From NCBI GenBank assembly GCA_051294375.1, contig CM119271.1, forward strand, positions 16,516,212-16,580,211: DNA of 64,000 nucleotides. The letters run 5' to 3'. Source of the stretch: Paraspadella gotoi (lineage: Eukaryota; Animalia; Chaetognatha). The position numbers and the translations under genes were made by a program. The notes under the pieces are model-generated. The model was not told where the DNA came from. It ran no database searches and saw only the letters and a list, made by a program, of their open reading frames with translations. Position 1 is the stretch's first letter. Every line of letters begins with the position of its first letter. Below, one piece after another: positions 11,301 to 60,380 of this stretch.

Positions 11301-13261
11301 GTCTTGATTGAAAGCTTGTAGGTAGCTGCTATGTCATCATCTTGTAAACCACCAAAGCCTGTCCAAAGGCAGGGTCACGATAGCTTATTTATTGAATGAA
11401 TGGATAATTTTCATATTGGTTGTACCAATTTCCTCCCTGAATCATTTTTATGTTTTTGGTTTGAGTAACAATAACTCTAACTTTATATTTATTTTTTGTT
11501 TAATAGTTCTTATCACATTCATCAGTTAAAACAAGTTAAAACAGCATATTTTACTATACTAAATATACGTGGATTTAAATGCTGTTAAAGAATGACATAG
11601 CTGTTTACATTTGATAATAAAGAAACAATAAGTAGAAGCAACTCACGTTTGATACATTGCTCTTTGCGCCCAACGCGTTGTCTTTATCTCTATCATTGCC
11701 ATCTCCCTCACTGTATCCATCTCTATCATTGCCATCTCCCTCACTGTTTCCATCTTCATCATCGTTTATTTTCCTCCATCGCAGCTTCAACCCATTGATA
11801 TCTCCCGACCAGTTCAATCGGCACTTGACGTTAAAAGTCTCGTCAGCCACGCCCCCTTCCGGCACTGGAAATACGACGACCGAGATATTGGCGCCGGAGA
11901 TGGTATTGGCGCTGCACTTGATGAGGCTGGAATAGAGGACAGCCTTGATGGAGGTCTGTGGCTTTGGCAGTGATGCACCTAAAACGGATGGCGTCCACGA
12001 GCAGTCGTATCTAAATGGGAACGAGCCAAATGTCTAAAGAGTAAAGAGTGATCCTATTATTCTTATTACAAAGAGAAGTCCAGACTCACCTCCCGGCATC
12101 TTCCGGCGTTGGCGAATCTTCAAACCGACGCTCAAAGTCACGTAAATTGACGCCGCTCAATTCATTCGTCAAATTATTGGCGTCGTGAAAGAGATTTGGA
12201 TGGATGAAGGTGTTTGGATGACTGCAACTATAGGGGTTAAAATTGAGGGGGTTTAAAACATTGATAAAAATTTATTATACAGTTTAACATTTTGTTAAAA
12301 AAGAAATTTATTACTTTGCTCATTAATTAAAAACAAAAATTTTCGTGGAACAACAATAAAGTTTTTTATTAACTTTGGACATATTTCGGCTTACAACTCA
12401 AGCCTTCATCAGCATTTTGCAGCTTGAGTTGTAAGCCGAAACATGTCCAAAGTTAATAAAAAACTTTATTGTTGTTCCACAAAAATTTTCGTTTTTTAAT
12501 TAATCTCAACAAACAACAAAAGAAAGGATTAATACAATATCTACTTTGCTCATTAAAATTTAATGTTACCTAAACTTCACAGCGCCGGAAAATCTCGCCG
12601 TCTTAACTTCAGCATCAACTCGCCGATTTTGCACAAAGATGCCAGCATTGATGGGTGCTGCAGAAAGAACTTCGCTGTGAACTTTGATGGAAATATCGTC
12701 GAGTCCATCACGAGTAAAAAATACTTTGCGATGCTCTTCGGTGGGTGGCATTGAGTGGCAGTGGATGAGGGAAAAGCCATTGTTGAGCCTGGTACATGTT
12801 ATTATGGACATGTAACATGTTTTTTCTTAAAATTTGTTAGAAATTTATAAACCTTACCTGTTATCTCTGTCCCCAAATGAGATGTCAAAACAGTCAGCAA
12901 TGTCTCTGGTTGACATCTTGTAAAAGCTGATCTCAGTTCTTTCACCATGAGTTTTGTTTAAACGTAACTTCAACTCACAATAGTTTCCATTTCTATAAAA
13001 AAAATAAATACTTAGTAAACAAAAAATTATAACAATAACAATCAAACTATAAAAATATGTCATTCACCTGTCTGTTTGGACCCCGCCCCTCTCCACGGTT
13101 GCGATGTCAACAAAGATTCCCTCATGGATCTCTTCAGGTGTCACTTTTGTGACAGAATCACATATATCAACATGAGTCTTTGATTTAGAAATAGACGTGG
13201 CCAGAAGCAGTAGAAGGGAAAGGATTTGAACGTGGCGAAAACAGAAAAGCAAGGTTGACAT
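5340..13261 (-). CDS. Type-I membrane receptor, paralog 1 (~522 aa): signal peptide, CUB-like, Ig, Ig, TM, Cys-rich segment, tail ending SYEKIRY
   Basis: Exons are 13261-13068, 12992-12858, 12788-12570, 12227-12090, 12010-11647, 11147-10928, 6239-6064 and 5462-5340. All introns are GT-AG, phases are consistent, and the total is 1569 nt. Motifs: Ig F-strand DAGRYDCSW, second Ig FNVKCRLNWSG..LRW..FVC, TM GIYGVVTCVSVILLFILVCCLL. Confidence 0.85.
5571..5729. mobile_element. Palindromic insertion with TSD, probable Penelope-like (PLE) inverted remnant
   Basis: Inverted arms at 5581-5628 and 5637-5684, followed by the tail caacgaaaagaaagg. The flanking direct repeat taaaccagact is at 5571-5581 and 5719-5729. 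Confidence 0.6.
8493..9134 (+). mobile_element. TRIM family A: two LTRs (~8493-8719 and ~8898-9134) carrying a tRNA-Gly-like module
   Basis: The direct repeats end in ..gtctcttCA. PBS-like ttgtgagccca lies at 8720-8730 and PPT-like gggagggtgga at 8887-8897. The LTR has A-box tggtgccggagg, tcgcctcccaa (similar to the tRNA-Gly CCC anticodon arm) and B-box ggttct(a/t)gcc. The 5' LTR start is eroded. Confidence 0.7.
9398..10060 (-). mobile_element. TRIM family B: LTRs 10060-9804 and 9683-9398 carrying a tRNA-Met-like module, with a 4-bp TSD
   Basis: Both LTRs run TGT...ACA. TSD aata is at 9394-9397 and 10061-10064. On the minus strand, PBS TGGTGAGCCCA is at 9802-9792 and a GGGGG PPT lies 2 nt before the 3' LTR. 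The LTR module is GGTGGCTCATTGAGTAAAGCCATCAGCTCATGACC...GGATTCAATCCC. Confidence 0.85.
10563..10820 (+). mobile_element. Solo LTR related to TRIM family C
   Basis: Termini are TGTGGTA...TGCCATA, with flanks gaat/aaat. It carries the tRNA-like gctcgtcccattagcttggacagctaag...gcgttcaatccc and shares the 3' end ccgttgccata with family C. Confidence 0.6.
11230..11432. repeat. Copy of a dispersed ~200-330 bp repeat (others at 17455-17610, 23310-23492, 42275-43077 and 51680-51865)
   Basis: The shared core is gtgaataaacgagactgtgaga..cttgattgaaagcttg..aaaccaccaaagcctgtccaaa..gatagcttattta..attggttgtaccaat. Confidence 0.75.
12312..12556. mobile_element. Palindromic Penelope-like insertion with a hammerhead core and 15-bp TSD, in intron 3 of receptor paralog 1
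   Basis: Arms are at ~12322-12403 and ~12422-12504. TSD tactttgctcattaa is at 12312-12326 and 12542-12556. The insertion is absent from the homologous intron of paralog 2 (16796-16901). Confidence 0.8.
12376..12415 (-). ncRNA. Minimal type-I hammerhead ribozyme motif (PLE type)
   Basis: The minus strand reads tg-CTGATGA-a-GGCTT-gagttgt-AAGCC-GAAA-tatg-TC-ca. This is an intact core with a 5-bp stem II and a very short stem III. Stem I is only about 2 bp. Confidence 0.65.
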
Positions 13262-14261
13262 TCTGGTTGATAAAAGTATATAATGAATGCATCACTAAAA
13301 AAGTCAATTTACTAATTACTATTTTAAAATAATTAGTTTTGGATCAAGACAATATTTAAATGCAAATTAATAAAAATACATAATTTTTTTAAATAATTAA
13401 GCTTTACTTGATTTTTGAGGCTGCTGTACATTTCACAACTTTGGCTTTTTGAATGCTGATACAGTATTAAGGGGCAACTCTACTGGCGCTGCTTCAAAGC
13501 CATTGAAAACATTGCACAGGCGTTGTTGCTTCATACTTCATGTTGTTGCAGCAGAAAGCGATTTAATAAAAATTGATGTGTTTGAAAGAGAGAAAAACAT
13601 TGTTTTGTTTTTTCAGTCATCTCCTTTCATTTTGAATCTGAAAATGAAGCTTATGAGATTATTTAAATCAGTAATATAATAGAGAGTGTAAAAAATTTAG
13701 ACACCAAAAAATCAATTGTGTAAAAAATTCTGTATATACTAAGAACAAGTCAAAAGATAATAAGTAAACTTTTTACACATAGTATAGACACTTTAATTGA
13801 AGTCAAATAATGTGTTAGTAAAAAAAATATTGCAAATGTAGAGATCATAATCACCAAAATGACTTAAATGCCTGTAAATAGGTACATTTTAAAATGTTAC
13901 AGTAGAAGGAAGATTTGATCAAATTCAATTTAATTGTAATGTATGATTTGCAAAACGGCTTTGAGTTTCTCTTAATGTCTTAATGTTATGACTTTTTCTT
14001 GTTGGCAAAAAAAACAACATTTTTAATACCCCGAACTGTTTGACTAGGAATAATGGAGCAGCTTTTACTGTATCAAGCTAACCAAATTTTAAATGATAAA
14101 ACCTTTTTTTTCATTCACTCTTCTAAATTTAAAGTTTATATTGATAATTAATAATTAATAATTAATAATTTTCCTCAATTTTTCTATCAAATCGCCCACG
14201 AGTTTCTCAGCTTTCATATGAATCATATTAATTAATTAGATAATTAATTAATTCATATTAA

Positions 14262-15630: not shown

Positions 15631-17880
15631 TTCTGGCTTTAATACCATTTTTTCAATTATCTATAATTTAAGTGATAATGTATCATCTTAATTAATATTT
15701 CAGCAGAAGATCAGTAACTACAAGGTGCATAATGAAATCAGTTTTGCACTTGATATGTATTGTTTATGTAATAGTTTTTAGTTATTTTACCTAATACTTA
15801 GTAAAAAGTTAAAGCATTATTAAACCCATTTTGTTCTAACTTTTACACTTGCTAATATGAAAATGCGTAGACCTAAAAAATTAACTGCGGTGCAACACCT
15901 TGATCATGTCAGTTCTTCTCTCAATAAGAAAATTAGACTACATTTCATTTTTCCTTCTTCTCAACTCTTTACCTCTAAAATCCTGCTCATCATCATCGTC
16001 CATTCGTGGGATCGGCGAGACACGAAAATTCACGCTGCACGCTTCCGGCGCGGGCCCTTCGAATCCCCTCCGATCCATCAAATCGCAAACGTAGGTCGTC
16101 GTCGTCTTCCAAGTTTTCGGCGTCACTCTGAAATCGGCCTTCATGCGGCGTCCATCGTCGTTGGAAACGACGCCGGGAACGTCGATGCCTTTGAAGGTTT
16201 CGTTCCATTCCGTCCACTGAAGTCTCAAGCCATTGGCATCGCCGACCCAGTCGAGTTGGCACTGCATGTCGAAGGTTTCGTCAGCAACATCTCCGGTTGA
16301 AGCTGGAAAGATAATGATAGATTCGTTCTTATCGGAAATATAGTTTGCGCCACAATTGATTCGACGCTGATAAAGGATGGCGTTTATGGAAGTACGCGGT
16401 GGTGGAGGGGAACCGCCAGCATCTTGATGCGTCCACGAGCAGTCGTATCTTTAAAAAAAGAAAAAGTGGAGGGAAAAGTGGGTGCTCCAAATTAAATGCA
16501 TAAAAATAACAAATCAAAATACTCAATGGAAAAAATCAAAATTAGGCACCATTTTCTGAACACGCTTAATTTCTGTTATTAATTCCCAAACTTAATTTTT
16601 GATATCTAACTCTTCTGGAAAAGATGTTTTAAAATTGAAATCTACAATAAGATTTACCTTCCAGCATCAGCTAAAGTCGGCGCGTATTCAAACTTTCGCT
16701 CAAAGTCACGTAAATTCTCTCCGTTCAATTCATTTGTCAAATTATTGGCGCCATGGAAGAGATTTGGATGGATGAAAGGGTTGGGATGACTGCAACTTTT
16801 GGGCGGTTAGAGTTAAAGGAGTTTAAAACATTGATGAAAATTATGACATTATTAAACATTTAGTTTAAATAGGAAGTTACTATTTTAAATTTTAATGTTA
16901 CCTAAACTTCACAGCACCGGAAAATCTTGCCATCTTAACTTCAGCATCAACTCGCCGATTTTGCACAAAGATACCAGCATTGATGGGTGCTGCAGAAAGA
17001 ACTTCGCTGTGAACTTTAATGGTAATGTCGTCGAGTCCATCACGAGTGAAAAAGACTTTGCGATGCTCATCGGTGGGAGTCATTGAGTGGCAGTGGATTG
17101 GGGTGTGACCTTGGTTTGCACTGATGAATAAGGGTTGACAGTCGGTGTTTATATTTTAATTGTTATCACTCTTGAAACTCACTTGTTATCTCTGTCCCCA
17201 AACTCGATGTCGAAACAGTCAGCAACGTATCTGGTCGACGTCTTGGAGAAGCTGATCTCAGTTCTTTCTCCGTGAGTTTTGTTGAGGCGTAACGCGACTT
17301 CGCAATATTCACCATTTCTAAGACATGAAGAGGGCAAAAGTATTAAAATTAGATGGGTACAAACTATCTTGTTATAAAATGTTATACTTTTTTCAAATTA
17401 AATAAGATTACTTTAGATTTTCATCGATTGAATGGTTAATTTTTATTTTATGAGATTGGTACAACCAATATAAAAATTAAGCATTTATTTTTATTAAGAA
17501 ATAATCTATTTTGCCTTTGCCTTTTGACGGGTTGCGGTTAGGGCCTCCATCACTCTTTCAAACTAATAACATAGAATGACCCTGAAAGATTTCAATCAAG
17601 ACTATATTTTTAACAATATTTTCTTACATTTTAACAATGTCTCATACATACGCGGTCAAAACCCGCGAAAGATGTTCACTGACCTGTCTTTCAGGACACC
17701 AGCCCTCTCCGCTGTTCCGATTTCAATAAAGACGCCGGCGTGGACTTCATCCGGAGTCACTTTTGGATCCTTGGCGCAGACGTCAACGCGTTTGTGATGG
17801 TCGGAAGTGGGCGTGGCCGAGTGGAGGAGGAGGAGGCAAAGGAGGGAGAGAGCGAGTAAGGGAGAGAGAGAGGAAGGCAT
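14262..17880 (-). CDS. Type-I membrane receptor, paralog 2 (~511 aa): signal peptide, CUB-like, Ig, Ig, TM, Cys-rich segment, tail ending PYDEIRY
   Basis: Exons are 17880-17684, 17317-17183, 17120-16902, 16795-16658, 16448-15973, 14737-14562 and 14456-14262. Introns are GT-AG, phases are consistent, and the total is 1536 nt. Exon sizes of 135, 219, 138 and 176 nt match paralog 1. Motifs: DAGRYDCSW and TM GLYAAIICVIVIFIIAIIICLF. Confidence 0.88.
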
Positions 17881-19027
17881 AGTTTGGGCGAAGAGTTTTT
17901 GTTTGATTGATTGATTGATTCGGACAGATTGTGTTGGAGTTTTTGTTGTCGTTGTTGCTGCTTTCATTCACTTGGTCGGGGTTTAATTCGTTGTCGAGTT
18001 TTCTCGATAGTCATCGTTGTCGTCGTCGTCATTTGAGATTCTTTCAATTGAGATCCATTTAAAACTAAAAAATAAAAAAATAAGACATCCGAAAGTAAAC
18101 TAATGAAAACTTAACGAATATAAATTCTAAAAATAAATCCGTATTTAAAAATTGTAGATCTCCGAGCTTGACAAAACATAAAGAGGGGATTTGAATTATA
18201 AACGACAGTAGTTTTAATTCGTGAACAATATACGTAGCCTTTTTTCATATTGGCACGGAAAGATGTTATCGAAAATCATTTTAAACTCTCGAAAATGGAA
18301 TGCGAAAAGTTTTACAAATATGCGAAGAGTTTGAGCGATATATGCGACATTTAGTAGCATAAAGTGCAATCATGAGAAATGAAATCACAAGGTGTAGTCT
18401 TATAGGGGATAGATGGGAAGGCACAGGTTTCCTTTTGTAAACAAAAATATAATTCTAGTATATACGAAACATAATTCGAGAGTAAAGCTTTTTTCGGTAA
18501 CTAATGAGACAAAGTTATAAAGCTACTATTCGTTGAATAAGATCAGTATAAAAATTGAAAATAATAATCTTGAAAGCTTTTCAATAATTTTACGAGTAAA
18601 AATGATAAAAATGATTTTTCTGCACATTTGAATATTTGGTGGACTTTTATACGATTTTTCCTTTTCTTATCGGTTATCACTTCATCGTTTCCTTTTTCCA
18701 TTCCTGTTTTAGTAAAATCTATTGTCATTTTTCGTTCGGCTGTATTTTCGGCACCGTTTTCCAAAAGCGCCCTATTTCAGTTTCTAATTTTAAACTAATC
18801 TTAAACCCGATGAAATTTAAATGCTAATGCATATAGCGTTACAAGCCTAATTAAAATTATTATATTACTATGTAAAGGGAAAAAAAAATTGAAATCTTAA
18901 AATTTTTTTTTGGATTCTGATAGAGCATAAAAAGTTAAACAAGAAATATAATTACAGCTTTTAAAAATTCTTAAATTCTCAGTAAAAATATAAAAAAACT
19001 AATAAAATCATCGAAAGATGATGATGA

Positions 19028-53876: not shown

Positions 53877-56800
53877 TCAAGCCTTTAAATCAAACTTGAT
53901 CACGTGACATGGATGCGTAGTTGTTTCCTTGTCGACGTATCCGCCGAAACAAAAGGCGCCAATGACTCGGTTCCGCTTCTTAACGGCGACAGCGGCGTGC
54001 AGCATCAGTCCGCCGCCGTCGACGCAGAGCTCCGCCGGAAGGTCGGGCTCATCTTTCCAAGTCGAGTTTCTGGTTTCAGGTGGTGGTGGGGTTCAAAGAA
54101 ATATTATATTTAGTTATTTGATGACTTTAATCTGTGATTTATTTGTGATCACTCTGTATTAAAAAGTCGTGAATGCGTCGTGTACGCATCCAGAAAAAAA
54201 ATCTTAAAAGTAGTATTGATCGAGCCTGCTAGCTATTAAAGAAAATCAATGAAAAAATCCGGAAAAAAAACCAATGCTTGATGCGATAACGAATTATTAA
54301 TGTAATAGTAAATTATTGATGTAATAGGATATATTGATTGTGATGATAACCAATTATTGACGCGATTTGATAACCAAATATTGATGCGATATTATCCAAT
54401 AATTGATGCGATGATAACCAAATGATTGATGTGATGATAACCAAATGATTGATGTGATGATAACCAAATGATTGATGCGATGATAGTCATCATTGATGTG
54501 ATGATAATCATTCATCGATACGATAATAGTCATTCATTGACGCGATGAAACATTCATCGTAAATAAAACAAACAAATGCGTGTATGAGTGAAGAGAAGAG
54601 AAAGAGAGAGAGAAAGAGAAAGAAAGAGAGAGAGAAAGAAAGAGAATAAATCCACGAAAATCTCGGATGTAAATTTGGGATTTTGTATTGAAAAAAAAGC
54701 GCGGATTGAGGCGACTTACCACCGGTCTCTCTCTCTTAACCCTTCCTCTCTCCTCTTTATCCGAGCCGGTCTATCCACACGGTCACTTTGCCCTCGTCTT
54801 TGGCAATGACCTTAGATTGACCGGACACAGGAATAGGGCCGAGGCGACCGTAAGGTCAAGTTGGTCCGGGCGATGATAAAAGTGGATCAGGAGAGAGCTC
54901 GTCTCACTTCTTTTCTAATTCTCTTACATCGTCACAATTCTTCACCTTCTCCTCACTTTTATTATTACTATTTTCGTCTTCTACAGGATTAAATTTTTTC
55001 AAAAAACGAACGATCACGCAAGAGATCGTACAGTGAGAGAGAGACAGAGAGAAAGACAGAGGAAAGACAGAGAGAAACAGAGAGAGACAGAGAGAAGAAA
55101 GCTGGACAGCCGCTGGAAGGCAGCTGTACAGTCACTGCATAGCCTGAACTCGTTTTTAAACGGTTCAGATAAGGCAGCGCCTGACAAAAATAAGAAGAAA
55201 AATATATATAAAAGAAAGGCAAAAAAATGTTACAATTTTTTCCAATCATAGCTTGTAAAAGATTTTATTTTTATTTGTATTAAAATTAAGATATAGCTGC
55301 TCATTAAAAAGGTCTTTTTATTTCTCATGTTTTTTATTGTTTCAAAGATTTCTTTATGAATTTCATCTTCAATGTTATTTACTGCAATATGTAAATAAGA
55401 TTAAAGCGTTTCTATAAAATAATTTGGATATTATATTGAGTACTATAATCTCATTTGAATATGGCAGTAAATCATAATGAAGTGGAAATTCAAACAAAAA
55501 ATAATTGAATCAAATGTAATATTTAATATTTAATATTTTTAACTTACTATGATCACACACTTTTGTAAAACTTTATCATAATTCATAATAATTTTTATTT
55601 AAAAAAAAACGGTAAGTCCCAGCCAAACCTATAAAATCGTAGTAGTTTTTATATAAAAACAGCGTGACGCCGACGACGACGACGACGACGCCGACGACGA
55701 CGACGACGACGACGACTACGTCACAAAGAAGCAATCCTAAAACATTAAATAGAGCCAGGACCTGGCTCGATAAAAAGCGGCTGGAAGGCAAGCGCACCAG
55801 TGGTTTTGATGTAAAGTATTATCAATTTGCCTTTTTGGAACTTAAACGTCAGGGAATTTACTAATAAAATGATCAAATATCAATCATATTCAATCAGTTA
55901 ATAGTAATAACAAATATTTTCATTTCACTCCCATTTAAAATCCGAGTATAATCTATGTTTCGACTACTTAATATTAATTGTAAAATAATGTTTCATTGAA
56001 TTAATACTATTAATCTCTTCAGTTAAATAACTAATCCCCTCGTTTCAAACCTCGCATCATAGATCCCGACTTTTTTAGAAATTTGACCAAGCTTGCTGCC
56101 CCCAACGACCAGAAACTTTGACCCAGTGATCGGGGTCATCGTTTGGGTGCAGATTGATCGCCCTATTCCCGTATCAGTCAGTCGACTCCAGGCTGCGGTC
56201 TTCATCTCAAGGGAGAAAAAACCCTCGGCAATTTCTTCTCCACAGATTCCACCGTGGAGAAAAACCTTGGTTCTGAGCCGGGCCACGCCAAAGTTGGCTC
56301 TGGGAGAGGGAGGTGTACCGGATGTCTCCGGCAGGGAAAAGTTGTTGGGCCCTGGATCATAGCGGAGCAATTGGTTGTTGGCAAAGCGGCCTGGTTGCCC
56401 TTCCCATTGAGACCAGTCGCCGCCCTGGAGACGGGGTACAAAAAAGGTTGTCTTTAGTTTTTAAAAATACATATACTCACATATCTCGTACTACAAGCAC
56501 ACTTCAATAAAATTCTTTGATAAAATCAATTTTTTCAATATATCTATCACTATTTACTTTTTTAAATGTGCTACCTGGAGAAATCCTGCAAATGTGAGTC
56601 CAAGCTTTGGCCCACAGCCACCAAAATAGTACAAAGCACCTTCATATTCCCAGCCACAAAGGTGGCTTCTTGGAGCTGGGAGTTGGCCAACGGGATTGAT
56701 CTTTTCAAACCTCCCTGTTAGATCGAGGGTATAAAGCTTATTGGAAGCTTTGCCCTCAGCAAGCCCACCAAATAGGTAGATGGATTCTTTAGTTGCAACG

Positions 56801-59691
56801 CCTATGGCTGAGGTTGTTGGCGGTGGCACATCGCCTGATGCTTTGATTCGTTGCCAAGAGTTGTCCTTTGGATCCATGACAAAAAGGTCAACAGGTAGAA
56901 AAAAAAGTGCTCCATTTGGCTGCTCTTGATATCCTCCCCAAATATAAATCTTTCCCTTGAAGGAAACTGCGATTATCCCGACGCCAATCGGGAATCGATT
57001 TGCTGTCGCGTGATGCGAGCGGAAGATCGGAGGAGCCTCAACCAATTCCACTGGAATAGGATCAGGCAGCCGAATGGTCCGTGCATGGAAAGTTGAACCT
57101 TAAAATTTAAAATTTATAAATAATTACACTAAAGTATCATTGTTCATATCTTTACCTTTGAGGCAAATCATGGGCATTCTTAGAATAAATGTGGAGTTTC
57201 CTGTAGCATGTTCTTGAACCGTGAAACTATCCTTTTCGTGCAAGCACAAAAAAAAGAAATCGTCAGAAATAAAAAAAATTTTATGGATGTAAAACAACTC
57301 TTCATGGGGCCAACTTTGCTCTGAAAATGTATACTCTGCCACAAAAGCAAATTGAGCTAATTTCTTGACAAGTTTACGAGGTAAGGCGCACAAAGTACAG
57401 AATGTAGCCACTAAATGTGATCTTAAATGCTCGTAAAACTCCTGGTTTATTTTGTTTTGCAGAATAGTCACTTCTTCTGGAGAAAAAAAAGATTCTCCCC
57501 TTGTCTGGACATATCTTATGACCTCAGATGCCATGAGTATGCATGATGATTTTTTAATTACAATTTTTATCATCTGAACTATGATTTGCCAGCATCTCCA
57601 TCTTGTGAACGATTTGGAAGAATCAAAAATGTATTTCACATATTCTACAAACGCGGTGGATGAGTGTTTCTTCTTAAACATATCCTTAAGTAACAAGGTT
57701 GAAGCGCACCTCAATACATTGATATGCTTTTGCCCAATGTTTGAGCGAACAACCTCTTTACCAATTGGTGAAGAATTCGTGATGAGGAAAATACCAATGA
57801 TAAGTTCCTCCAATTTTTTGTCAATGACATAAAAGGAAGACCATGATTTAGTTCCTTGGTCAACCACAACTTGATGTAGTATGGCCAGCCTGCAAGCGAT
57901 ACTAGCTTGGTCTTGTGTAAGCGACTTCTCCAGCTTTTCATAAAATCTATCCTCAGATATATAAAAATCACTTCTCAGAAATACTTTGCCAAGGGCAGCC
58001 AGGATACGAATATTTTCAGTGAGAAGCACCATCGTGCCTCTTCTGTACAATTTATCCATATCCTCTCCCAAACGACCAATTTCTTGTTTGATCGTCATGG
58101 CCAGAATGTGAAGGAAGCCCCCCAGCTCATCTGAGATTGTTCTGTCATCAAAAATCGCGCAAATCATAACTAGAAACATTGGAAAAGTCATTAAGTTGAT
58201 CATGGAGGAACTGCTTTTGTACTTTTGTCTAATTGCTTCACGTTTTTTATCCTGGTCATCGCAAAACTGAAAACGATTCACAAATTCTAAACTGTGGTCT
58301 TTGGATAAAGGCGCAATAGTAAACTCTGTCACATCAGCCACAATTCCTTTGAGCAAGTCTCTGGATTTTGGTCGAGTGAGAAACAAAAAAGAACTGCTGC
58401 CAAAGACCGATGAACCAGAAATGTTTTTCCGTAGAAAATTCCTAGCAATGGGTTTGGATGAACAATCATCCAACCCATCAAGTATCCAGAGCAAGTTTGA
58501 TGACTTATTGATCAACGTTTCATGCAAGTTGCTGTAATTTTCTAAATGATGGTGTTGAATAATAATATTTTCAAACAAATCCTTTGAAAAATCGAGATGT
58601 TTAATCATTAAGTGGAAAACCATGAAAAAGCTCGTCAAGCATTCATCATTGGCCCATTTGTAGGTTATGTTTTTGGCAACTGTGGTTTTTCCAAAGCCAC
58701 CATTGGCACAGATCAGCAGTTTTAGACTTTTTTGATTTTCAATCTCGGACACGAGACCCTGGAAAAAGCAGTCAATTGTCGTTGTGCTTTCCAGCCTTGG
58801 TTTCCAAGTGGTTTTTCCCAAAACTTCATCATCATCGTCACTATCCTCATCGAGGCAAAGATTTTGCTTTTCCATTTCATTGGTAATTTTTTTGAAACCA
58901 ACGTCAATGTAATCTTTGGATACGTCCAGCTGTTGCCTCGATCCTGGCACGTAGAAGATCTTGCACATTTGCTTCACATCTTCTTTGAAATCCTTTGACA
59001 TTTCCGCAGAATCTTTGAACTCTTTGCTTTTTCTTGATGGTACCTGATTCAAAGGATACAGCGTCTTTAAATTTTGATGCGATAATCCTTTCCTTAGCTG
59101 AGGCGCTTTTTCTCTCTTCATAAAATTTTCAAAATCTGTGTTGTACATTTCTAAGAGAAGCGCATAAATTTGTTCCATTCGATCCTGGTTATGAATTTCT
59201 TCCAGAAGAAGTTTGGTCAAATATTCCTCCCACTTTTGGCGAATATCAGGATAATCTTGGAACAGTTCCCGACAAATGACGACAATCTCGCCAAAGGCAA
59301 CAACAAAGTTCAAAACATTCATCTCCTTAACGTTTGTATGGGCGTATTCGTTCCGTTTGTCCTTCAGCTTCTTTAGAAGTTCCAGGTTTTTCACGAACTT
59401 TTGCAGAACGTGATAAAGGAAAGTAACGTCGGCTTGGTCCAAATCGGGAACGTCTTCGCCTTCGAATTTGATGGTCGACATTTTGTTGGCGAACCTGAAC
59501 TTCTTGATGTGCTCGATGTTCTCCACGCACCACTTTTTCCACAATTCCCCGTCTTCCCATGGTTGCTCTGTGTGACGAGGGAGTTCGACTTGGACCAAGT
59601 CTTTGAGGATCAAGGGACTTCCCTCAAACGAAAATTGCAAGAGTTTCAGATGAAATAATTTGTTGGAGGCGAGTGGATTCTTGTCCGTCAT
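53877..59691 (-). CDS. NLR-like STAND protein (~1217 aa): DZIP3/hRUL138-type HEPN, NACHT NTPase, helical region, six-blade KLHDC1/2-like Kelch propeller
   Basis: Exons are 59691-57156, 57098-56575, 56451-56051 and 54069-53877. Introns are GT-AG with phases 1/0/2, and the total is 3654 nt. Motifs: HEPN DLDQADVTFLYHVL..LKDKRNEYAH, Walker A ANGGFGKTT, Walker B LLWILDGLDD, sensor-1 FLFLTRP and motif FPMFLVMIC. The six Kelch GG motifs are IYIWGG, IYLFGG, LYYFGG, VFLHGG, FLVVGG and AFCFGG. Confidence 0.88.
54330..54548. repeat. 22-bp tandem repeat (ttgatgtgatgataaccaaatga) in the last intron of the NLR-like gene
   Basis: About 9-10 visible degenerate units. Confidence 0.8.
54708..54825. mobile_element. 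Second copy, with one TIR, of the TG..CA MITE at 22880-23031
   Basis: tgaggcgacttaccaccggtctctctctc..ccacacggtcactttgccct..ggcaatgaccttagattgaccgg is the reverse-complement match to that element. Confidence 0.7.
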
Positions 59692-60380
59692 GATGGAAGC
59701 TCTGTCGTGATAAGAGTGGTCATAGGAAAGTCGATGCGCAAAATATACTTTTCATTACACATATGTATCCAATATCAAATTGAAACCGAAGAAAAATGTA
59801 ATGATTCAACTAGGTAGAAGATAAATATTTTCATTGTATTCATTCAGTACATTTAGTATTATCATAATGATACAAACTGTCAATTTAAAAGCAACAACAC
59901 ATTTTAAAAACCATCCAATTTAAGTTAAAGCTACAAAATTATTAAAAATGAAGAATTATGTTCTTTTCTTTATTTTAACTTGGTTCCGCCTCCCAAATTT
60001 TTTGGTAGATAAGTAAAAATAAATAAGTAAAAGATCAAATGTTTAAGATAAGTGATAAGAGGTCATCATAACTTTTGTGCCGAGTCTCACAACCTTGGAC
60101 TAAGTAGTGGTCGATCTTATCAAATGCACTTTGACTTTCAGTTTAATTTTAAGTTCTCTGAAAGATTTTGATTAAAGAATTAACATTAACATTAACAATC
60201 GGTTATATTGTTAATCATTTAAGAATAAAAAATGGGTTAAGAAATAAGAAGATTGGTTATAACGAAATTTCCTTTTCAATGACTCTACTAAAAACTTTCT
60301 TTACATTGCGTGATTTCAGATTAAGAAGGGGAGAGAGAAAAAGAGAAAGAGAGAGAAAAAGAGCGAGTACTAGAGACAAG

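Follow-up and report, generated by a model that had tools for sequence, protein, structure and literature searches.

The 64,000-nt stretch of Paraspadella gotoi contig CM119271.1 (assembly GCA_051294375.1, positions 16,516,212 to 16,580,211; hereafter the window) carries a four-exon gene on the minus strand, whose corrected product of 1208 amino acids (aa) joins a likely HEPN ribonuclease (RNase) head, a NACHT nucleoside triphosphatase (NTPase) switch and a C-terminal six-blade Kelch propeller. We lean towards the view that this HEPN-NACHT-Kelch protein works as an immune receptor inside the cell: a propeller-gated switch would bring the predicted RNase heads together for RNA cleavage. That the three parts form a single protein had been proposed from the letters of the DNA alone (the sequence-only reading), and this is supported by a spliced contig, by profile matches and by relatives, the HEPN part being recognized only through the relatives. 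The transcript runs past the stop at 57124, NACHT and HEPN signals are present, and no description of the architecture was found; on each of these points the proposal could have failed.

Gene structure and transcript evidence

The 855-aa open reading frame (ORF) at the start of the gene is present at 59691-57127 on the minus strand, and the genomic reading frame is open through 1208 codons in four exons. The transcript evidence comes from the assembled contigs of one run, X1, which holds 63% of the sampled words. A 2064-nt X1 contig skips all three introns; it is made up of segments 58266-57154, 57096-56574 and 56423-56051, followed by 28 letters identical to the start of exon 4, and it ties the back half of the NACHT module (from aa ~476) to the Kelch exons without substitutions. 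The proposed junctions 57156/57098, across a 57-nt intron, and 56051/54069, with the 28 letters of exon 4, are both joined in this contig, and the spliced exons were confirmed to have GT..AG intron ends and to share a single frame. The acceptor of intron 2 had been placed wrongly at 56451: the contig skips 150 nt, which moves it to 56424 and gives a protein of 1208 aa, not 1217. The corrected junction aligns gap-free to P0005, a 1332-aa relative from another source. Exon 4 alone gave no match in Pfam or PDB. It does complete a Kelch repeat, as had been suggested, since it aligned to the tail of P0005 with a score of 78 that was reached by none of 1000 shuffles. The expected six blades are marked by six GG motifs between aa 900 and 1188, and an AATAAA lies downstream of the exon 4 stop, at 53850-53845. 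The features of the gene are as follows.

57156..59691, minus strand: coding exon 1, aa 1-845, with the HEPN head, linker, NACHT, helical and winged-helix domains and CxxC/WP domain
59182..59691, minus strand: likely DZIP3/CXorf38-like HEPN domain (predicted RNase), aa ~1-170, from homologues, head profile and helical model
59355..59338, minus strand: RNEYAH, putative catalytic Rx4H motif (R113, N114, H118), from conservation
58270..58719, minus strand: NACHT NTPase, aa 325-474 (PF05729)
58707-58684, minus strand: Walker A, ANGGFGKT
58485-58465, minus strand: Walker B, ILDGLDD, with the last Glu replaced by Asp
58383-58369, minus strand: sensor 1, FLTRP
57820..57822, minus strand: D624, the Asp that stands in for the family's winged-helix His, from the alignment; the X1 contig has no substitution here
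57157..57429, minus strand: family-specific CxxC (C765, C768)/WP domain, leading from the helical domains to the sensor, from aligned relatives
57099..57155, minus strand: intron 1, 57 nt, GT..AG, phase 1, skipped in the X1 contig
56575..57098, minus strand: exon 2, Kelch blades 1-3, KLHDC2-like (PF24681, E 5e-23; PDB match KLHDC2)
56425..56574, minus strand: intron 2, 150 nt, GT..AG, corrected acceptor, skipped in the X1 contig
56051..56424, minus strand: exon 3, Kelch blades 4-5 (PF24681, E 1e-10)
54070..56050, minus strand: intron 3, 1981 nt, containing multi-copy repeats; joint 54069/56051 in the contig
53877..54069, minus strand: exon 4, remainder of blade 5, then blade 6 and the stop codon, from the 28-letter spliced overhang and the P0005 tail alignment

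Exon 1 is covered by X1 contigs at 57154-58266, 58345-58513, 58539-58930, 58934-59275 and 59325-59748; upstream of 59748, cover is missing for 250 to 700 bases. Since such an uncovered flank and the skipped introns are expected of mRNA, X1 is probably RNA. The whole gene lies on no single contig; its HEPN part is found on separate contigs, yet in the same genomic exon as NACHT. The gene is not present in runs X2 and X3. Besides the contigs of the gene itself, X1 holds paralogue-like contigs that are ~83% alike over blade 1; it also contains equal-depth rows that touch Walker B, helical domain 1 (HD1) and the start of the Kelch region, which probably represent one further NACHT-Kelch transcript. 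Over the repeats of intron 3, the summed depth of X1 contigs runs from hundreds to thousands, and an unspliced contig spans 54042-54226. The G+C content at third codon positions (GC3) varies along the gene, with 0.58 in the head, 0.41 in NACHT and 0.57-0.65 in exons 3-4.

Domains of the protein and their relatives

The NACHT P-loop was confirmed at 58707-58681, and PF05729 matched aa 332-474 with an E of 7e-12 (45.9 bits, above the curated cut-off of 26.7). The Walker A Lys-Thr, the sensor-1 Arg and the HD1 Pro (TFPMF) are intact. In the domain that follows the helical domains, the CxxC is found in 10 of 10 aligned rows and the WP in 9 of 10; this domain gave no informative Pfam match and may be a small metal-binding domain. 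Pfam scans of all four exons revealed no leucine-rich repeat (LRR) families, and the C-terminus is Kelch, unlike that of a canonical NOD-like receptor (NLR).

The relatives were collected with a HMMER search of 1.84 billion representatives, which returned 242 hits; 150 of them were listed, mostly short gene calls. Three word-seeded protein searches, insensitive compared with HMMER, found nothing at E<=0.001. The RNEYAH motif of the head is present at 59355-59338 (aa 113-118), as previously noted. By itself an RxxxxH motif is weak, as the protein contains three and one also arises in 17% of shuffles of aa 1-170; those at aa 200 and 601 were set aside because they lie outside the HEPN domain. 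The motif is supported instead by its conservation across homologues. Among the 150 listed hits, 18 matched aa 11-176, and RNxxAH is kept in 12 of the 13 that span it, at 21-32% identity, the other five ending or diverging before the motif; P0093 is a homologue that lacks the Arg. The R, N and H stand out as some of the best-conserved positions of the head alignment, whose median column identity is 12.5%.

The kinship of the head to DZIP3-type domains emerged from profile comparisons. HEPN_DZIP3 (PF18738) was weakly matched by 7 of 19 members (best E 6.6e-4), and four more HEPN families appeared. When 132 other proteins were ranked by the head profile, P0030 came first with its two HEPN_DZIP3 domains (E 3.6e-6) and P0025 next with its DUF4559 domain (E 0.012), and the D-x-T/S and RN..H motifs of these domains line up with those of the profile; hhalign of the head profile gave an E of 1.7e-4 over 160 columns with a probability of 49%. 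The top Atlas cluster for the head scored 0.95, and HEPN_DZIP3 is found on 21% of its members. The structure model of the head is confident and helical (predicted local distance difference test, pLDDT, 86). It aligned to Csm6 (Z 7.6, root-mean-square deviation (rmsd) 3.7, 110 residues), which contains a HEPN domain, and to the Swt1 C-terminal domain (Z 6.4, rmsd 4.2, 117 residues), in both cases tied with unrelated helical bundles. Foldseek with this model yielded no match at E<=0.001; a poor single-sequence model (pLDDT 50) had no Foldseek matches either, and the head profile found no meaningful match among PDB sequences. HEPN RNases are recognized by a conserved Rx4-6H with a polar residue after the Arg (PMC3710099), and the head family shows both traits. 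By these marks the head is likely an active-type DZIP3/CXorf38-like HEPN domain. The HEPN assignment of the sequence-only reading is supported by way of the relatives; the window's own head had no direct HEPN_DZIP3 match.

For the propeller, the best PDB match of exon 2 was KLHDC2, with an E of 1.5e-20 and blade for blade, a likeness that the sequence-only reading had not noted. Exon 3 matched KLHDC2 residues 181-286 with an E of about 5e-6 to 9e-6, at rank 9 behind other Kelch proteins, and the propeller of P0005 also had KLHDC2 as its best solved match (E 1.4e-24). Judging from these best hits and a shared insert, with no tree, we infer that the propeller descends from a KLHDC1/2-type substrate receptor. 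The blade-4 loop of the window copy reads GGICGEEI (56253-56230) against GGRYRDAR in KLHDC2, with Ile at both Arg positions when mapped by eye and via P0005, which itself retains both arginines. We take the arginines of GGRYRDAR to be those of the Arg-Ser-Arg in KLHDC2. It is through this blade-4 Arg-Ser-Arg that KLHDC2 binds a C-terminal diglycine, and through its BC-box that it joins the cullin (PMC11568203). Loss of the carboxylate-binding arginines makes a diglycine C-terminus an improbable ligand for the window copy; the comparison covers the KLHDC2-type anchor of blade 4 only, those of the KLHDC3 and KLHDC10 types lying in other blades. The BC-box tail is absent too, the stop coming two residues past the last propeller strand.

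Comparison with the relatives showed a modular family, in which heads and tails vary around one NACHT core. P0005 carries the same NACHT core and propeller in one uninterrupted protein behind a different head, and it aligns end to end with the core and propeller of the window protein including exon 4, both finishing at FDL. P0154 (954 aa) is collinear with the whole of exon 1 including HEPN (E 3e-51, 24% identity over 945 columns) and ends where the propeller would start. The HEPN-NACHT pair recurs in P0031, P0006 has the same core without the HEPN head, and P0151 carries a second, NB-ARC-like P-loop NTPase domain (residues ~480-832) in the place of the propeller. A weak likeness between the tail of P0151 and the head of P0005 (residues ~45-100; score 57, equalled by 1 of 2000 shuffles) hints at module shuffling. 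Of the window and the 150 listed hits, the window alone has the full HEPN-NACHT-Kelch order; relatives supply every pairwise junction. A quick tree was built from the window and, of the 110 hits whose NACHT alignment is long, the first 70; in it the window grouped with P0001, P0003-P0006 and P0009 (SH-aLRT 83; 95 with P0014 and P0055) on a long end branch of 1.19. Two metagenome scans gave no confirmed loci, and an Atlas query with P0005 found no NACHT-Kelch cluster (best 0.84), which indicates neither novelty nor absence. P0155, a partial hypothetical protein in a Bacteroidota metagenome-assembled genome, is probably a mis-binned eukaryotic contig, because the relatives carry introns.

Elsewhere in the window, a calpain-family protease exon with the catalytic Cys motif lies at 16-366 on the minus strand (Peptidase_C2, E 1e-19). 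Two paralogous genes, each of several exons and with a signal-peptide-like start, lie in tandem at about 11600-13300 and 15900-18000 on the minus strand and contain near-identical exons (12569-12826 and 16901-17155); the pieces of them that were scanned gave no clear Pfam match. Seven runs of N with 1604 bases between 32018 and 46726 mark the assembly as a gapped draft and leave the gene untouched.

Proposed mechanism and competing explanations

In the receptor that we favour, the propeller and the CxxC domain would most likely hold the NACHT module closed, and a peptide ligand in the top pocket of the propeller would open the switch. By analogy with known STAND and HEPN proteins, oligomerization would then bring the HEPN heads together, each two of them forming a composite active site, and the paired heads would cut RNA, with cell death or an antiviral state as the output. 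The ancestor of the propeller, as its homology suggests, would be a KLHDC1/2-type ubiquitin-ligase receptor that lost its cullin-adaptor tail and kept its peptide reading. An immune-type family is favoured because the core is combined with varying heads and tails (in P0005, P0006 and P0151), which is also how immune receptor families vary. A bolder and rather doubtful extension is that this lineage built NLR-like receptors by placing a ubiquitin-ligase degron reader on a NACHT switch, with RNase as the output, either to sense protein ends, for example termini newly made by pathogen proteases, or as bait for effectors that hijack the KLHDC2 ligase. P0005 would then keep the C-terminus-binding arginines, and the window pocket would be retuned to another peptide.

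Several observations weigh against the receptor reading. Within the switch, at sites that the sequence-only reading passed over, the last Glu of Walker B is Asp, where relatives read DG[LI]DE in 8 of 8; the winged-helix His, which in NACHT switches holds ADP in the closed state and is found in 9 of 9 aligned relatives, is Asp624; and the conserved winged-helix CNG..GF segment has a 7-residue gap. Kelch occurs in only one of the 150 listed hits, P0005. The window head gave no HEPN_DZIP3 match in Pfam, only HEPN_RiboL-PSP at E 0.074, and its Atlas recognition value of 2280 is below the reliable mark of 2300. All transcript contigs come from X1, the RNA status of which was guessed, with no record. 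A T8 run at 57482 is one base longer in the bridging contig, whose 5' end also shows a non-canonical skip of 32 nt; a low-depth contig lacks one base in an A5 run at 58424, and each of these single-base indels would end the frame within 35 codons. Finally, PMC9646362, PMC8260672 and PMC3710099 propose, but do not show, an RNase role of eukaryotic HEPN-NACHT proteins.

The main rival takes up several of these points: the window copy, transcribed and spliced, would be decaying or switch-defective, with a damaged switch or segregating null alleles, and at most a sensor that needs an intact partner. We consider this unlikely, though to be taken seriously. The two substitutions and the gap at family-conserved sites, the three frameshifting indels in the contigs and the long end branch speak for it, whereas the four-exon genomic frame is open, with no damage to the HEPN motif, Walker A, the CxxC or any of the six GG motifs. 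As the listed X1 contigs carry no substitutions and the genomic frame aligns to relatives past both sites, error is the simpler reading of the indels at 57482 and 58424, and sequencing or assembly error also fits their position in homopolymers. The Asp624 site is, from its motif position, the presumed equivalent of NLRC4 His443, where a change with loss of the ADP contact weakens ADP binding and promotes activation, the protein not being killed (PMC8260849). Since the three family-conserved sites depart and loss of this His promotes activation in NLRC4, the switch of the window copy may be loose or damaged.

Other explanations concern the head, the role and the gene itself. That the HEPN head is a dimerization or RNA-binding scaffold, signalling through partners without cutting RNA, seems distinctly improbable: this head is missing from P0005 and P0006, which have the same core, P0093 lacks the Arg and inactive HEPN families exist, but the high conservation of R, N and H against the median column is the pattern of active RNases (PMC3710099). 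We give still less credence to a housekeeping quality-control role, in which aberrant protein ends would be coupled to RNA decay with no immune function. In protein quality control, KLHDC-family propellers do recognize aberrant C-termini (PMC11568203), yet the degron anchor is lost in the window copy, and the many divergent module-swapping relatives (~20-35% identity) and paralogue-like X1 contigs fit an expanded conflict family better than a single-copy gene under conservation. A division of the HEPN-NACHT ORF and the Kelch exons into two genes is largely refuted. Left unspliced, the ORF ends at a stop of its own at 57124, no single contig holds the gene and GC3 differs along it, but one contig bridges the intron 1 junction, matching exactly over long stretches to either side, and P0005 carries NACHT and Kelch in one protein.

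Comparison with known systems

HEPN-NACHT-repeat proteins are candidate immune receptors (PMC9646362, PMC8260672, PMC3710099), and those with LRR, tetratricopeptide repeat (TPR) or WD40 tails have been described from oyster and cnidarians (PMC9646362, PMC8260672). The window protein shares with the DZIP3/hRUL138-like HEPN-NACHT proteins of bivalves and cnidarians (PF18738 and PF05729) an N-terminal Rx4H HEPN, a central NACHT and C-terminal repeats, and likewise belongs to an expanded family with a proposed RNase effector. It differs in its Kelch tail, where the published tails are LRR, TPR or WD40, in a head too divergent for PF18738 and in the CxxC/WP domain ahead of the sensor. The word 'kelch' has no occurrence in the main texts of PMC9646362, PMC8260672 and PMC3710099, nor in the 8 supplementary files of PMC8260672; the supplement of PMC9646362 was outside the search and may list such proteins. 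The literature search, which left most subscription papers and InterPro outside, found no description of a NACHT-Kelch fusion; NACHT and Kelch met in one paper, with Kelch in separate genes. The claim that the architecture is undescribed therefore holds for the NACHT-Kelch fusion within this search and is qualified by the published HEPN-NACHT proteins with other tails and by Kelch repeats in plant NB-ARC receptors. The KLHDC2-like propeller would thus be an unusual sensor on an already described HEPN-NACHT plan.

A WD40 beta-propeller sensor stands behind the STAND NTPase in Apaf-1 and fungal HET-E, which bear adaptor or other effector heads. The window protein has Kelch blades in place of WD40 and a HEPN head in place of theirs. 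In plant NB-ARC receptors, Kelch is noted as a rare solenoid (NLRscape, PMC9825502), and the non-LRR solenoids of all types together comprise under 500 sequences. The order of a STAND switch followed by Kelch repeats is shared with these plant proteins, which belong to another STAND class, often have LRRs as well and are described in the accessible text without mention of a HEPN head.

With KLHDC2 and the other KLHDCX C-degron receptors of cullin-RING ligases (PDB 8ebl, 6do3), the window propeller shares the six-blade Kelch fold and the insert between blades 3 and 4; it lacks the BC-box and the blade-4 arginines and is fused behind a NACHT module. Such a propeller would add a sensor class to the NACHT receptors, with a suggested origin in a ubiquitin-system substrate receptor. 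Because the KLHDC2 pocket has been structurally mapped, the question of the ligand is directly testable with C-terminal peptide libraries on the window propeller and that of P0005, and the compact 170-aa head offers a simple test case for the RNase activity of eukaryotic HEPN-NACHT proteins.

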